Notes under the pieces: model-generated
Seen by the model: only the letters and a program-made list of their open reading frames with translations
Databases searched by the model: none
What the model was told of the DNA's origin: nothing
NCBI RefSeq assembly: GCF_024298765.1
Contig: NZ_CP101214.1
Origin: Escherichia coli
GTDB taxonomy: Bacteria; Pseudomonadota; Gammaproteobacteria; Enterobacterales; Enterobacteriaceae
Length of the DNA stretch: 6,988 nt
Direction: 5' to 3' (one strand)
Part shown: positions 379 to 5,195 of the stretch, piece by piece
How the letters are laid out: every line of letters starts with the position of its first letter
Position numbering within the stretch: position 1 is the first letter of the stretch
Translations under genes and position numbers: made by a program

Positions 379-599
379 CGGTGAGTTGTTCCGGGAGGTT
401 GCCAGATGGTACCGGAACGCGTTAAAAACGCATCCGGGCGCGATTCTGGCGTGTCGTTTTTGTTGCTGTGTTTTGCCTCTTTGCCAGATCGCGCTCATTC
501 CTCAGCCTCATCCCGCGATGTCTGCGTATGTCATCAACTGAAAAGATGGAAAAAAAACAGTGTCATGAGGTTTACACAGGCAAAACTAGCGTTATTCAC

Positions 600-748
600 A
601 TGGCTGAATAGCTATGCATACGGTTAAAATTTATCAGGTGCGATCGCGGCAGCTTTTCGGGTGGTTTGTTGCCATTTTTACCTGTCAGCAGCCGTGATCG
701 CGCTGAACGCATTTCAGCGGTGCGTACAATTAAGGGATTATGGTAAAT
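600..748 (+). other. cer-like Xer site-specific recombination (multimer resolution) site: ArgR-box-like element plus XerC/XerD core
   Basis: Core at 719-748 is GGTGCGTACAA (XerC arm) - TTAAGGGA (8-bp central region) - TTATGGTAAAT (XerD arm), which matches the ColE1 cer crossover site as I recall it. About 100 bp upstream (around 602-620) TGGCTGAATAGCTATGCAT resembles an ArgR box (TGAAT...ATTCA-like), at the spacing expected for the cer accessory region. Confidence 0.8.
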
Positions 749-751
749 CCC

Positions 752-1174
752 TTACTGTCTGCCCTCGTATCCATCGAGATAAACCGCAGAAATGGTGTCT
801 GCCATTAGTTTCATTTTTTTCGGCGAAGGCATATCGCTGTTTGTGTATTTTCTGCCAGCAAAGGCTGTTGTGCTCCGGAGTGAGTGAAAAAATTTTTCTG
901 AGTGGAATTCTTTTACACGTTGCTGTGCCGTTTCTGCTGATACTCCGGCTGCTTTGTCTTTCATCCCCATATCCCGGAACTGCTGAAAGAACGGGAGCAT
1001 CATACGTATGGTGTCTGCTTTCTGGGTGTAGAAGTTAGGATCAAATCCATCATCTGAAGCATAAACATAATGCCGGGTATGTCGTTCCAGGCTGGTCTTT
1101 GGTGTGCATCCTGTAAGAGCTATTGTTGCTGTTATCAGAGGTATCAGAAGCAGCCTGGCAGCGGCAGATTTCAT
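752..1174 (-). CDS. Small lipoprotein of unknown function (about 140 aa; possibly an entry-exclusion-type lipoprotein)
   Basis: ORF on the minus strand. AAGGAG lies 6 nt upstream of the second ATG (1174); the first ATG (1180) abuts the SD. N-terminus MKSAAARLLLIPLITATIALTGC has a basic n-region, a hydrophobic core and an L-T-G-C lipobox (signal peptidase II type). Thr at +2 suggests outer-membrane sorting. Confidence 0.65.
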   Translation of the reverse strand: MKSAAARLLLIPLITATIALTGCTPKTSLERHTRHYVYASDDGFDPNFYTQKADTIRMMLPFFQQFRDMGMKDKAAGVSAETAQQRVKEFHSEKFFHSLRSTTAFAGRKYTNSDMPSPKKMKLMADTISAVYLDGYEGRQ

Positions 1175-1295
1175 AAACATCTCCTTGCGTTTTTAATCTT
1201 GATACTCAGGGAGTTATATCTCCGAAGAGTATCTCTTATCATACGTCGGTTTACTCCCAATGTGATTTGATGGTCAATGAGTCAGGAATAATCCC

Positions 1296-1574
1296 GTGAA
1301 AAAATGTGTGCCAGTCCTGCTTTTTAGTGTTCTTTCTGCTTCGGTTGCCAGTCATGCGGACAGCAATGTTTTTCAACAAAAGGCCGAGAAGACAAAAAAC
1401 GGCATTGTTGCGGATGTTAATGCCAGACAGAAAATGTTCAGTAACAGACTGAAGATACAACTTCAGATCGATGAGTTGAGAGCAGAGCTGGCTGGCACCA
1501 GAGATGCCCAAAAAAGAGAGGATTTGCGTAAAAAACTGGAGTCTCTGGAGCGGCAAAAGAAATCCTTACGCTGA
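1296..1574 (+). CDS. Small Sec-secreted, highly charged coiled-coil protein of unknown function (92 aa precursor)
   Basis: GTG start at 1296 with AGGA 8 nt upstream. N-terminus MKKCVPVLLFSVLSASVASHA-DS is a typical signal peptide (KK n-region, hydrophobic core, S-H-A cleavage motif). Mature part is Lys/Glu/Arg/Gln-rich and predicted helical. TGA at 1572-1574. Confidence 0.5.
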   Translation: MKKCVPVLLFSVLSASVASHADSNVFQQKAEKTKNGIVADVNARQKMFSNRLKIQLQIDELRAELAGTRDAQKREDLRKKLESLERQKKSLR

Positions 1575-1856
1575 TGGGGGCGTATTTTCCCCGGTTTCTT
1601 CCATAACCTTTTTACCGTTCAGATATTTACGGGCGAGGCGAATGCGTCTTGCCTGGTATACCGCCGAGTAAGCCTGGGTGGGATTCACACCATTACTGAT
1701 TTCACTGACCACATGACGCTGATCAGCCAGTGTCAGCGTGTAAACCTGTTTCTGGATGAGGTCACGGGCTTTGTCATGCTCATATCCGGCAGCAACAAGG
1801 GTGTCGAGAAGTCGTTTGTCTGTTTTGTTCAGTTTATGGCGGGGTGATTTGCTCAC
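1566..1856 (-). CDS. Small basic protein with a putative helix-turn-helix (candidate DNA-binding regulator), unknown function
   Basis: Minus-strand ORF. Best start is GTG at 1856 with GGAG 6 nt upstream (the track's longer ORF starts at an in-frame TTG at 1883). 96 aa. The segment HVVSEISNGVNPTQAYSAVYQARRIRLARKY looks like helix-turn-helix. Converges on the 1296-1574 gene with a 9-bp overlap. Confidence 0.5.
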   Translation of the reverse strand: MSKSPRHKLNKTDKRLLDTLVAAGYEHDKARDLIQKQVYTLTLADQRHVVSEISNGVNPTQAYSAVYQARRIRLARKYLNGKKVMEETGENTPPSA

Positions 1857-1988
1857 ATCGTTCTCCGTTTTTTCATGATCCAACAGTTTTATATCTCATC
1901 CTGATTTGCTCCGGTGTTCTGTTTCGACGTTCTCAATGCCTGCCTCCCCATAGTGTGATCCTTATTGCAAAAATGAAAATCCATGCTC

Positions 1989-2054
1989 TTGACATGGACA
2001 ATGCTGAGTAGTAGGTTTTACTGTATATAAAACCAGTGGTTATATATACAGTAT
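1989..2054 (+). promoter_or_regulatory. Colicin operon promoter with tandem overlapping LexA (SOS) boxes
   Basis: -35 TTGACA at 1989-1994, with a -10 candidate in 2009-2020. CTGTATATAAAACCAG (2021-2036) overlaps GTGGTTATATATACAG (2036-2051): the CTGT-N8-ACAG-type double SOS operator typical of colicin promoters. AAGAGG RBS at 2085-2090 precedes the ATG at 2096. Confidence 0.8.
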
Positions 2055-2095
2055 ATTGTTTTTAATTTATTGTTTTAATTATCAAAGAGGAATTT

Positions 2096-3742
2096 ATGGC
2101 TAAAGAACTAAGTGGATATGGACCAACTGCTGGTGAGTCTATGGGGGGAACAGGGGCGAATCTGAATCAGCAAGGTGGAAATAATAATAGTAATAGTGGG
2201 GTTCACTGGGGTGGTGGCTCTGGGCATGGTAATAATGGTGGTCAGGGAAATTCAAATTCATCTGGTTCTACATCAACTGTGATGAAAACCGGTGAGTCAT
2301 ATCTGACTCCGTGGGGTGATGTTGTCATTAATAATGATGGCCTTCCGGTGATGAATGGTATTGTTATGACAGAAGAGAATTCAACTCTGGTTGATAATCC
2401 ATTTGGAGGGGTCTCCAGAGTTCTTAATTCTTTAATTAGTGATATGCCATCACTTTTTGCAGAAAGCTCAGGAAATAACAACAATAACACTGCTTCAGTT
2501 AATACTGCACCAACGAATGCTCAGGTCAGTGATATGGATAAGAGTTCGAAGGTGGTGGGTAATGTAATTAATGAAAAACAAAAGCAGAAGAATAAAATTG
2601 CTACACAGATTAGTGAAAAACAGAAGAAAATCGAGGAGATGAAAAAAGTATTCAAGCATCATTCTTATCATGGTATCACTGATCTTGAGAGGGATGTTGA
2701 TGAGTTGCAAAAAAAATCAAATCAGCTTGATGCAGATATTAGCAAACTTAATTCTTATAAAAATACATTGCAAAGTAAAATTGGTGATGTGAATAAACAG
2801 AAGGAAGCTGAAGAAAAGGTTCGTGAAAATGCAGAGGTCGCTGAACATGAAACTCTTAATGAAGAGAAACAGGCGGTGGCGGAAGCAGAGAAGCGTTTAG
2901 CTGAGGCGAAAGCTGAACTGGCGAAGGCTGAAAGTGATGTACAGAGTAAGCAAGCTACTGTTTCCAGAGTTGCAGGAGAGCTTGAAAACGCTCAGAAGAG
3001 TGTTGACGTGAAGGTCACCGGATTTCCGGGATGGCGTGACGTTCAGAAAAAACTACAGCGTCAGCTTGAAGCTAAGCAGGCTGAGTACTCCGCAGTTGAA
3101 AATGAACTTAAGAATGCTGTTAGTTTCAGGGATGGTAAGGCCGCTGAGGTTAAAGAGGCAGAGCAGAAATTAAAAGAAGCTCAGGATGCTCTTGAAAAGA
3201 GCCAGATAAAAGATGCTGTTGATACTATGGTTGGATTTTATCAATATATAACCGAACAATATGGAGAAAAATACGCAAAAATTGCTCAGGATTTAGCGGA
3301 AAAGTCTAAAGGAAAGAAAATTCAAGGTGTTGATGAAGCTCTGGCAGCATTTGAAAAGTATAAGAATGTACTGGATAAGAAATTCAGTAAGGTTGATCGG
3401 GATGCTATTTTTAATGCGTTAGAGTCTGTTAATTATGATGAGTTATCTAAGAATTTAACGAAGATATCAAAGTCGCTTAAAATCACCAGTCGAGTATCTT
3501 TTCTATATGATGTTGGTTCTGATTTTAAAAATGCAATAGAAACTGGTAACTGGCGACCTTTGTTTGTCACGCTGGAGAAAAGTGCGGTCGATGTAGGTGT
3601 GGCAAAAATTGTGGCATTAATGTTTAGTTTTATTGTTGGTGTGCCTCTTGGTTTCTGGGGGATTGCAATTGTCACAGGTATTGTTTCTTCTTACATAGGG
3701 GATGATGAGTTGAGCAAACTTAATGAGTTGTTAGGGATTTAA
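2096..3742 (+). CDS. cka: Pore-forming colicin, most likely colicin K (548 aa)
   Basis: 548-aa ORF with a Gly/Asn/Ser-rich N-terminal domain (typical of Tol-dependent colicin translocation domains), a long charged coiled-coil central region, and a C-terminal domain with a hydrophobic helical hairpin ([35 protein letters not shown]) typical of pore-forming colicins. Length and N-terminus [15 protein letters not shown]... match my recollection of colicin K. SOS promoter upstream, immunity and lysis genes downstream. Confidence 0.85.
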
Positions 3743-4029
3743 TTTCTCTTTAGAGTGTAATATATGAAACTTGGCAATCCTACTGGGATTGCCATTAATA
3801 AATAAAACAATGCAGATAACTTGCATAAGTACCAGGGTTCTTTTTTTAACTTTGTATTTTCTTTGATATATCTAGATATGGTTAATTTAGAGTATGGATA
3901 TAGCAATACATGTATTGATGATATAAATATAAATAACAAAGGAGTGTTATCATTCTCGTTAAATATTAAAATAAGAATCCATGGTATAAGTGATTCAGGT
4001 AAATTATGTAGGTAGTATTTTAAATGCAT
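3739..4029 (-). CDS. cki: Colicin immunity protein (integral membrane, 96 aa), convergent with the colicin gene
   Basis: Minus-strand ORF immediately downstream of and opposite to the colicin gene, the arrangement typical of pore-forming colicin immunity genes. Very hydrophobic protein with several predicted TM segments ([35 protein letters not shown]). Its stop codon overlaps the colicin stop at TTAA 3739-3742. Confidence 0.85.
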
Positions 4030-4058
4030 AAGTATTTTTACTTTTGTTGGAAAGAAAT

Positions 4059-4190
4059 ATGAAAATAATAATTTTTCTAATTACAATATTATTCTTGTCA
4101 GGATGTCAAGCAAACTATATTCGTGATGTACAAGGAGGAACCGTTGCACCATCTTCGTCTTCTGAACTGACGGGGATCGCGGTTCAGTAG
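4059..4190 (+). CDS. ckl: Colicin lysis (bacteriocin release) lipoprotein, 43 aa
   Basis: ATG at 4059, TAG at 4188-4190; not in the ORF track because it is short. [43 protein letters not shown] has a signal peptide with an L-S-G-C lipobox and the conserved mature region of colicin lysis proteins. Last gene of the colicin operon. Confidence 0.85.
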
Positions 4191-4199
4191 AAAAGATCA

Positions 4200-4226
4200 A
4201 AGGATCTTCTTGAGATCCTTTTTTTC
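4200..4226 (+). terminator. Putative rho-independent terminator at the end of the colicin operon (overlaps the RNA II promoter)
   Basis: Inverted repeat AAGGATC (4200-4206) / GATCCTT (4214-4220) with a 7-nt loop, followed by a T-run (4219-4225), 10 bp after the lysis gene stop. Confidence 0.55.
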
Positions 4227-4238
4227 TGCGCGTAATCT
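4210..4238 (+). promoter_or_regulatory. RNA II (replication primer) promoter
   Basis: -35 TTGAGA (4210-4215), 17-bp spacer, -10 TAATCT (4233-4238). Same architecture as the pMB1/ColE1 RNA II promoter in pBR322, recalled from memory. Confidence 0.75.
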
Positions 4239-4249
4239 GCTGCCTGTAA

Positions 4250-4352
4250 ACGAAAAAACCGCCTGGGGAGGCGGTTTAGTCGAAGGTTAAGTCAGTTGGG
4301 GACTGCTTAACCGGGTAACTGGCTTTAGTGGAGCACAGATACCAAATGCTGT
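4250..4352 (-). ncRNA. RNA I antisense copy-number control RNA (about 100 nt)
   Basis: Minus-strand promoter: -35 TTGAAG (complement of 4383-4388), 18-bp spacer, -10 TACACT (complement of 4359-4364), start near 4352 (ACAGCAUUUGG...). 3' end has a hairpin, AACCGCCT / AGGCGGTT at 4257-4276, followed on the minus strand by a U-run. Fully complementary to the 5' end of RNA II. Confidence 0.8.
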
Positions 4353-4358
4353 CCTTCC

Positions 4359-4388
4359 AGTGTAGCCGCTATAAGGCTTCAACTTCAA
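4359..4388 (-). promoter_or_regulatory. RNA I promoter
   Basis: TTGAAG -35 and TACACT -10 on the minus strand with an 18-bp spacer, arranged as in pBR322 RNA I. Confidence 0.7.
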
Positions 4389-4784
4389 GAGTTCTGCGTA
4401 TCTAAATCCACTATCCAGTTACCAATGGCTGCTGCCAGTGGCGTTAAGTCGTGTCTTACCGGGTTGGACTCAAGACGATAGTTACCGGATAAGGCGCAGC
4501 GGTCGGGCTGAACGGGGGGTTCGTGCACACAGCCCAGCTTGGAGCGAACGACCTACACCGAACTGAGATACCAACAGCGTGAGCTATGAGAAAGCGCCAC
4601 GCTTCCCAAAGGGAGAAAGGCGGACAGGTATCCGGTAAGCGGCAGGGTCGGAACAGGAGAGCGCACGAGGGAGCCACCAGGGGGAAACGCCTGGTATCTT
4701 TAAGTCCTGTCGGGTTTCGCCACCTCTGACTTGAGCGTCGGTTTTTGTGATGCTCGTCAGGGGGGCGGAGCCTATGGAAAAACG

Positions 4785-4815
4785 CCAGCTGCGTGGCCTT
4801 TTCCGGGTTCTTGTT
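4785..4815 (+). other. Approximate origin of replication (RNA II to DNA transition) of the ColE1-type replicon
   Basis: About 555 nt downstream of the RNA II start, in the sequence aacgccagctgcgtggccttttccgggttc, which corresponds to the pBR322 ori neighbourhood. The exact switch point cannot be fixed by eye. Confidence 0.5.
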
Positions 4816-5039
4816 TTTTGCTCACATGTTTCTTTTGGTGTTATCCCCTGATTCTGTGGATAACCGCATTACCGTCTTTGAGTGAGCTGATACCGCTCGC
4901 CGCAGCCGAACGACCGAGCGGAGCGAGTCAGTGAGCGAGGAAGCGGAAAAGCGCCTGGACGAGCATTTTCTCCTTACGCATCTGTGCGGCATTTCACACC
5001 CGGCATGGTGCACTTTTCATACAATCCTCACTGATGCCA

Positions 5040-5110
5040 AATGATTAAGCCAGTATACACTCCGCTATCGCTACGTGACTGGGTCATGGCTGCGCCCCGA
5101 CACCCGCTAA
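5040..5110 (-). other. bom / oriT region with putative nic site (basis of mobility)
   Basis: Sequence taagccagtatacactccgctatcgctacgtgactgggtcatggctgcgcc matches the pBR322 bom region as recalled. The reverse complement contains GTATACTGGCTTA, the ColE1-type nic motif, with the nick expected near 5049/5050 on the minus strand. Confidence 0.7.
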
Positions 5111-5195
5111 AACCCGCTGACGCGCCCTGACGGGCTTGTCTGCTCCCGGCATCCGCTCACAGGCCAGCTGTGACCGTCTCCGGGAGCTGCATGTG

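Follow-up and report, generated by a model that had tools for sequence, protein, structure and literature searches.

The accessory region of plasmid ColE1 between the cer site and the SOS-regulated colicin promoter contains two genes, exc1 and exc2 (Chan et al. 1985; NC_001371, 3943-4880). They lie in tandem on the minus strand, with exc2 at 3943-4362 and exc1, which encodes a protein of 145 amino acids (aa), at 4443-4880. According to the statement in PMC2831885 that cites Yamada 1995, the exclusion phenotype of ColE1 has been reassigned to mbeD, and the function of ExcI is therefore unknown. Because exclusion activity belongs to mbeD in that account, the "exclusion" label on exc1 and exc2 is unreliable. 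Two other plasmids offer close comparisons: Yersinia pestis pPCP1, with the gene YPPCP1.06 (its locus-tag position was checked against PMC5148098), and pColJs, with an open reading frame (ORF) of 98 aa. Both products are annotated as hypothetical proteins, and both genes are divergent from a bacteriocin promoter, that of pst and that of the colicin Js operon. Here, we examine the corresponding region of a 6,988-bp stretch of Escherichia coli DNA (contig NZ_CP101214.1; hereafter the window), which is a complete, circularly permuted ColE1-type colicin K plasmid. A first-pass annotation had set aside positions 752-1856 as an uncharacterized block of three small genes and suggested that they could form an exclusion, protection or envelope-modifying module. 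We conclude that this segment is probably the exc accessory slot of the colicin K plasmid in a variant form, holding three separately transcribed accessory genes (exc2, ORF92 and ORF96) and not one module. We are less confident of the functions of the individual genes than of this overall picture.

Homology to ColE1 is continuous from cer into exc2, with window 601-1137 matching ColE1 3792-4325 at 80% identity by blastn. It returns at 82% identity at window 1956-2097, which corresponds to the colicin promoter region of ColE1 (4996-5138). The window between these matches, 1138-1955, is non-homologous, and ColE1 exc1 lies in the corresponding gap; therefore, this segment replaces the exc1 interval. 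Comparison across plasmids, which the first-pass annotation had proposed, identifies it as the variable part of an otherwise ColE1-like plasmid. ORF96 (1566-1856, minus strand) is equivalent to ColE1 exc1 in position and orientation only: each adjoins the colicin promoter on its upstream side and is transcribed away from it, and each encodes a small protein. Unlike ColE1, with its tandem exc1-exc2 pair, the window has no exc1 homologue and instead carries the unrelated ORF96, together with an oppositely oriented ORF92 between ORF96 and exc2.

We rejected the idea that ORF96 is a diverged exc1. BLASTP of ORF96 against Exc1 gave no alignment at E ≤ 100, and tblastn with Exc1 found no copy in the window or in any of the ~30 fetched loci that carry ORF96. 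The possibility that all three genes are simply known exc genes was borne out for exc2, whereas ORF92 and ORF96 show no relation to exc1. ColE1 Exc1 weakly matches the NCBIfam family rep_pAB02_ORF2 ("plasmid replication DNA-binding protein"; E = 1.4e-9, below the cut-off), which points to a DNA-binding protein rather than a factor for exclusion at the envelope. MbeD, the entry-exclusion protein of ColE1 that has experimental support, carries the function historically given to the exc genes; it is encoded on the same plasmid (window 29-268, MbeD family) and is unrelated in sequence and location to exc2, ORF92 and ORF96.

Window 700-1950 is 99.8-99.9% identical to plasmid records of equal size. 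One of these, the 6988-bp plasmid NZ_CP120553.1, is annotated with rop, mobC, mbeB, mbeD, an Exc2-family lipoprotein, two hypothetical proteins, cka, cki, a lysis gene and the ori region. Block 752-1856 is precisely the Exc2 coding sequence plus the two hypothetical ones, so public records agree with the three ORFs called in the first pass. The arrangement is a variant of the known exc region and is already present in hundreds of records under "hypothetical protein" annotations.

The start contexts described in the first pass are also present: AAGGAG lies 6 nt upstream of the exc2 ATG at 1174, AGGA lies 8 nt upstream of the ORF92 GTG at 1296, and GGAG lies 6 nt upstream of the ORF96 GTG at 1856. 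ORF92 and ORF96 converge, as noted there, with a 9-bp overlap at 1566-1574 (TTACGCTGA). We estimated selection pairwise by the Nei-Gojobori method in the annotated frames. The ratio of nonsynonymous to synonymous divergence (omega) was 0.25 for exc2 against ColE1 exc2 (synonymous divergence, dS, 0.93) and 0.22 for ORF92 against a 64%-identical homologue (dS 0.96; 21, 13 and 36 differences at the three codon positions). ORF96 gave omega values of 0.34 and 0.37 against the pPCP1 and pColJs copies, respectively (dS ~0.75). These estimates, spanning 0.22-0.37, indicate purifying selection on all three and uphold the view that they are real genes. A 101-aa antisense ORF at 1251-1556 was rejected as non-coding because most substitutions fall on its first codon position. 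Coordinates are collected in Table 1.

Table 1. Features of the exc slot and its borders in the window
Feature	Coordinates	Strand	Remarks
cer-type multimer-resolution region	601-751		left border of the accessory slot; blastn 80% match to ColE1
exc2, Exc2-family outer-membrane lipoprotein (predicted), 140 aa	752-1174	minus	NCBIfam NF033828; synteny with ColE1
Divergent intergenic region exc2/ORF92	1175-1295		contains part of the candidate exc2 promoter
ORF92, small protein with predicted Sec export, 92 aa	1296-1574	plus	signal peptide 1296-1358; 71-aa mature part; WP_000710675.1
Terminator-like hairpin	1575-1593	plus	directly past the ORF92 stop codon, within the ORF96 3' end
ORF96, small basic four-helix protein, predicted cytoplasmic, 96 aa	1566-1856	minus	WP_000047032.1; position of ColE1 exc1
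Divergent control region ORF96/cka	1857-2095		colicin K promoter -35 TTGACA 1989-1994; overlapping LexA boxes ~2021-2051; read from sequence

By sequence and synteny, gene 752-1174 is exc2, the orthologue of ColE1 exc2. Its product scored 179.3 bits against NF033828 (cut-off 35; E = 4.5e-53), covering positions 6-131 of the 131-position profile, and is 68% identical in aa sequence to ColE1 Exc2, which has the same position, strand and lipoprotein signal. One third of the supposedly unknown block is thus a long-known gene, and the earlier statement that no family could be assigned holds for ORF92 and ORF96 and fails for the lipoprotein. The lipobox of Exc2 is LTGC, with Cys23 followed by Thr at +2, and the lipobox Cys is invariant across the clean family alignment. 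By the +2 rule, Exc2 is predicted to be sorted to the outer membrane. The AlphaFold 2 model has a predicted local distance difference test (pLDDT) score of 79.7; its structural neighbours in AFDB50 are exclusively Exc2 proteins, from Salmonella to Xenorhabdus, and a structure search of the PDB gave no specific match. We found 126 Exc2 homologues, and the family is common on Enterobacterales plasmids.

In proteomic data on outer-membrane particles from Shigella sonnei, the lipoproteins of the outer membrane include "entry exclusion protein 2", which makes up 0.42% of particle mass (PMC3368891, PMC4820968); therefore, an Exc2 homologue is expressed and reaches the outer membrane. An exclusion role, as proposed for the block in the first pass, is doubtful even for exc2, by extension from what the cited statement in PMC2831885 says of ExcI. 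Since the historical "entry exclusion" label lacks experimental backing, we infer only that Exc2, presumably directed to the outer membrane after lipidation of Cys23, would act at the envelope or surface of cells that bear the plasmid.

ORF92 begins with a signal peptide of typical Sec type, MKKCVPVLLFSVLSASVASHA followed by D, ending SHA/D as read from the sequence; the 64%-identical homologue keeps an equivalent signal peptide, ending AHA/E. The mature part has 71 residues, an isoelectric point (pI) of 10.2 and no cysteine. ORF92 would therewith be exported via Sec and released into the periplasm as a small basic protein. The lipobox of Exc2 and the Sec signal of ORF92 bear out the expectation of two envelope-targeted products beside a small basic protein that would stay in the cytoplasm. 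We found 37 ORF92 homologues, all close relatives on E. coli-type plasmid contigs. Among them are many single-member clusters with frameshifts, probably the result of assembly errors. Searches of Pfam, NCBIfam, PADLOC and the PDB gave no match for ORF92.

The only independent homologue of ORF92 lies on one other locus (L009, 1127-1399; 64% aa identity), where DNA homology is confined to window 1260-1574. An AdeS/BaeS-like sensor histidine kinase gene ends directly before it, and toxin-antitoxin genes of the ParE and PemK types come after it. This context hints at an envelope-stress connection, for which one locus is not enough. ORF92 is small, exported and charged, like the periplasmic helical stress proteins Spy, CpxP and ZraP, and the position of the independent homologue beside a sensor kinase gene adds to the likeness. 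In contrast to these proteins, ORF92 does not match Pfam LTXXQ/CpxP or Metal_resist at E ≤ 10, and its mature part is about half their size. Pfam listed only EAD9 and FlxA, at E > 0.6, and no PDB profile matched at E ≤ 10. We therefore set aside a Spy/CpxP-like assignment, and the resemblance may be taken as an analogy only. Copies of ORF92 on the large plasmids pECOED and NS-NP030_P1 were considered as signs of independent mobility and rejected: they are fragments of the same block, each of which still contains the 5' end of exc2 and the 3' end of ORF96, and in pECOED an IS26 transposase gene follows directly.

ORF96 has a pI of 9.9. Like ORF92, it went unmatched in Pfam, NCBIfam, PADLOC and the PDB; on these searches, the two small genes belong to no characterized family. 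None of the three proteins matched a PADLOC anti-phage defence family at E ≤ 1, and a literature search by protein accessions found no paper. ORF96 does match PHROG 36305, a family of unknown function, at E = 9.3e-39 (residues 2-84 on profile positions 4-86 of 101). The phage origin that this match suggested was rejected, since tblastn against 50,697 GenBank phage records found no copy; in practice, the gene is plasmid-borne. Both small families are very small and occur on enterobacterial plasmids. That of ORF96 comprises 38 clusters in a collection of 5.8 billion proteins, and its profile has 19 hits among 1.84 billion representatives.

The AlphaFold 2 model of ORF96 is a confident four-helix structure (pLDDT > 90 for residues 10-80) with a disordered, variable C-terminal tail. 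The first pass had called the protein helix-turn-helix (HTH)-like. The description is plausible from the model, but it was not confirmed: no Pfam or NCBIfam HTH family matched, and fold matches were weak. Profiles likewise do not support a sigma region 4, LuxR or terminase-small-subunit HTH, which the motif LT..D....V.E...G.N.TQAY had suggested, and the model has a single long last helix where such an HTH would have a turn and a recognition helix; one ORF96 relative matched the terminase small-subunit family at E = 0.033 only. The family profile (residues 20-70) weakly matches both CW_7 peptidoglycan-binding repeats of the Cpl-7 lysozyme structure 5i8l (E = 0.0098). This match is probably due to chance, curious as it is given the pesticin (muramidase) neighbour in pPCP1.

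Members of the ORF96 family occur in two arrangements. In class A, the gene is directly upstream of, and divergent from, a toxin operon. The colicins concerned are colicin K (window), colicin S4 (L008), a 490-aa colicin with K-type immunity, a 456-aa ColA-like colicin and colicin Js. Pesticin is the neighbour in Y. pestis pPCP1, where YPPCP1.06 lies between pla and pst, and in E. coli pesticin loci, and a further group of small Rop-encoding plasmids has a PAAR-Pyocin_S-CdiI_5 operon. YPPCP1.06 and the pColJs ORF are 68% and 67% identical to ORF96 over their full length, and ~76% over residues 2-83 by tblastn. Unlike the window, pPCP1 and pColJs lack both exc2 and ORF92. The tails of the proteins differ past residue ~82, because that of ORF96 is encoded in the segment shared with ORF92. 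The cer region is also conserved in pColJs and pPCP1 (window 411-749 and 418-729, respectively). In pColJs, the ORF96 homologue abuts cer; relative to this arrangement, exc2 and ORF92 form an insertion between the two in the window.

The promoter region 1857-2095 is conserved with those of pesticin, colicin Js, colicin S4 and the ColA-like colicin, each beside an ORF96 homologue. In the window, pPCP1 and pColJs, ORF and promoter region form one continuous homologous stretch (window 1609-2095). In five loci (L019-L023), an operon of PAAR, Pyocin_S (567 aa) and CdiI_5 immunity genes is divergent from an ORF96 relative, and the intergenic region of these loci has no LexA box and no promoter in common with the colicin loci. 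Upstream of ORF96, at 1979-1999 of the window, the minus strand has a terminator-like hairpin with a T-run, which overlaps the colicin K promoter at its -35 region; by eye, it is apparently not conserved in ColE1.

In class B, which covers at least three plasmid lineages, the relatives (44-70% identity) begin 4 bp ahead of the rop stop codon (GCATGA). The ATGA overlap implies a rop-ORF operon with likely co-translation. These ColE1-like, Rop-encoding plasmids (L014-L018, L031 and L013) carry cargo of type VI secretion system (T6SS) type: PAAR, DUF3289, a VgrG3-like C-terminal domain with TsiV3, and Hcp.

The ORF92-ORF96 segment is present at full length in 99 PLSDB plasmids, and the block occurs in 95 of 5,426 complete E. 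coli genomes (~1.7%), always on plasmids. It is 91-99.9% conserved beside colicin K, the 490-aa colicin with a K-type immunity gene, colicin S4 and the 456-aa ColA-like colicin, and also on a plasmid whose colicin gene has been lost. The genes also occur apart. ColE1 has exc2 with exc1 and without ORF92 or ORF96; pPCP1, pColJs, the E. coli pesticin loci and the PAAR/Pyocin_S plasmids have ORF96 relatives without exc2 or ORF92; and the independent ORF92 homologue has neither partner.

The archetype pColK-K235 (L005, NC_006881, 8318 bp) is the window plasmid plus an IS2 in ORF96, at window 1769-1774 (~codon 28). The blastn pieces overlap by 6 bp at this site, consistent with a target-site duplication. 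Because IS2 interrupts ORF96 in pColK-K235, that plasmid is maintained, makes colicin K and confers immunity without the gene. In the same record, ORF92 is frameshifted by a 1-nt deletion at window 1487. If this frameshift is real, neither ORF92 nor ORF96 is needed for colicin K production or maintenance.

At the transcript level, we found a sigma-70-like minus-strand match, ATCACA-17-TATGAT at 1266-1238, as a candidate exc2 promoter; it scores 9/12 and is a consensus match alone, the number of matches in the region being no higher than in shuffles. The same search gave no convincing candidate for ORF92 or ORF96 and nothing exceeding shuffle expectation. The hairpin past ORF92 is formed by TGGGGGCGTATTTTCCCCG followed by GTTTCTTCCA, and the region has seven terminator-like sites versus 1.5 expected.

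The proposal that the three genes form one envelope module, with ORF96 as regulator and Exc2 and ORF92 as effectors, draws on co-inheritance of the trio at 91-99.9% identity beside at least four colicin operons, on two envelope-targeted products and on the 121-bp divergent intergenic region common to exc2 and ORF92. We consider it improbable. The separate distributions of the genes, their mixed orientations, which preclude an operon, and the disruption of ORF96 and, in its sequence record, ORF92 in pColK-K235 speak against an obligate module; moreover, the exclusion phenotype maps to mbeD and not to the exc genes in the account cited above. The opposite proposal, that one or both of ORF92 and ORF96 arose by chance or are decaying, with a scar of recombination separating cer from the colicin promoter, could appeal to the missing family assignments, the many truncated or frameshifted variants in protein databases and the disrupted copies in pColK-K235 and one other locus (L012). 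It is largely refuted, and in our estimate very improbable, given low omega at dS 0.7-1.0, the third-position excess in the annotated frames, the conserved signal peptide and core residues, the confident ORF96 model and intact genes in ~100 PLSDB plasmids. We therefore retain three separately transcribed accessory genes in the exc slot, for which co-inheritance is what linkage during colicin cassette exchange at a conserved SOS promoter gives, without requiring joint function. Several points weigh against this conclusion. Co-inheritance in ~100 plasmids could reflect joint function and not linkage, the pColK-K235 sequence is an old record in which the frameshift of ORF92 may be erroneous, and no convincing promoter was found for ORF92 or ORF96.

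ORF96 takes the position and orientation of exc1, divergent from an SOS-controlled toxin promoter, and would belong to the backbone of ColE1-type toxin plasmids as a small protein that binds nucleic acid. It may act as a modulator, most probably at the shared divergent control region or else on the replicon. A dedicated transcriptional regulator of the adjacent toxin operon is a more specific and, in our view, unlikely form of this idea. The recurrent class A position beside colicin K, S4, ColA-like, pesticin (Y. pestis and E. coli), colicin Js and PAAR-Pyocin_S genes and the single homologous stretch of ORF and promoter argue for it. However, this adjacency could be hitch-hiking with a recombining toxin cassette, the PAAR-type loci lack the promoter and LexA box of the colicins, and in three lineages the gene is coupled to rop and not beside a toxin promoter. 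In addition, pColK-K235 is reportedly the source plasmid in the published studies of how SOS, ppGpp and IscR control cka, so normal regulated cka expression needs no ORF96. A replication or maintenance accessory unrelated to toxins, acting with Rop on RNA I/RNA II, on copy number or in plasmid establishment, would fit the class B overlap with rop, the confinement of the family to Rop-encoding ColE1-like plasmids in all loci examined and a small, basic, helical protein like the Rop-type RNA binders. We regard this as unlikely too, since ORF96 resembles Rop in neither sequence nor fold, the window copy is ~3.3 kb from rop across the colicin operon, and ColE1 and pColK-K235 replicate and persist without ORF96. 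In a speculative and similarly doubtful reading, the family, including YPPCP1.06, would be an unrecognized regulator specific to ColE1-type plasmids that links toxin cargo (colicins, pesticin, PAAR/T6SS-type effectors) to the replicon. Its expression would come either with rop, as part of that operon, or in the direction opposite to the toxin promoter, and it would set toxin expression or its cost by plasmid state.

The comparison shows the exc slot of ColE1-type plasmids to be a site for replaceable cassettes; apart from a possible role of ORF96, the region in the window is ordinary accessory cargo. The ORF96 family, tiny, confined to plasmids and always with rop or a toxin promoter, including on pPCP1 of Y. 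pestis, is a genuine but modest lead and the only real one of the block. If ORF96 does modulate toxin expression or copy number, colicins and pesticin would be under plasmid-encoded control in addition to that of the host factors (LexA, IscR and ppGpp) to which their regulation is at present wholly attributed.

Elsewhere in the window, an Rfam scan gave RNAI at 4250-4350 as its sole match, with none inside the three-gene block. RefSeq annotates a 47-aa "replication initiation protein" at 4385-4528 on the minus strand, within the RNA II/RNA I region of the ColE1 origin; this coding sequence is probably a spurious call.

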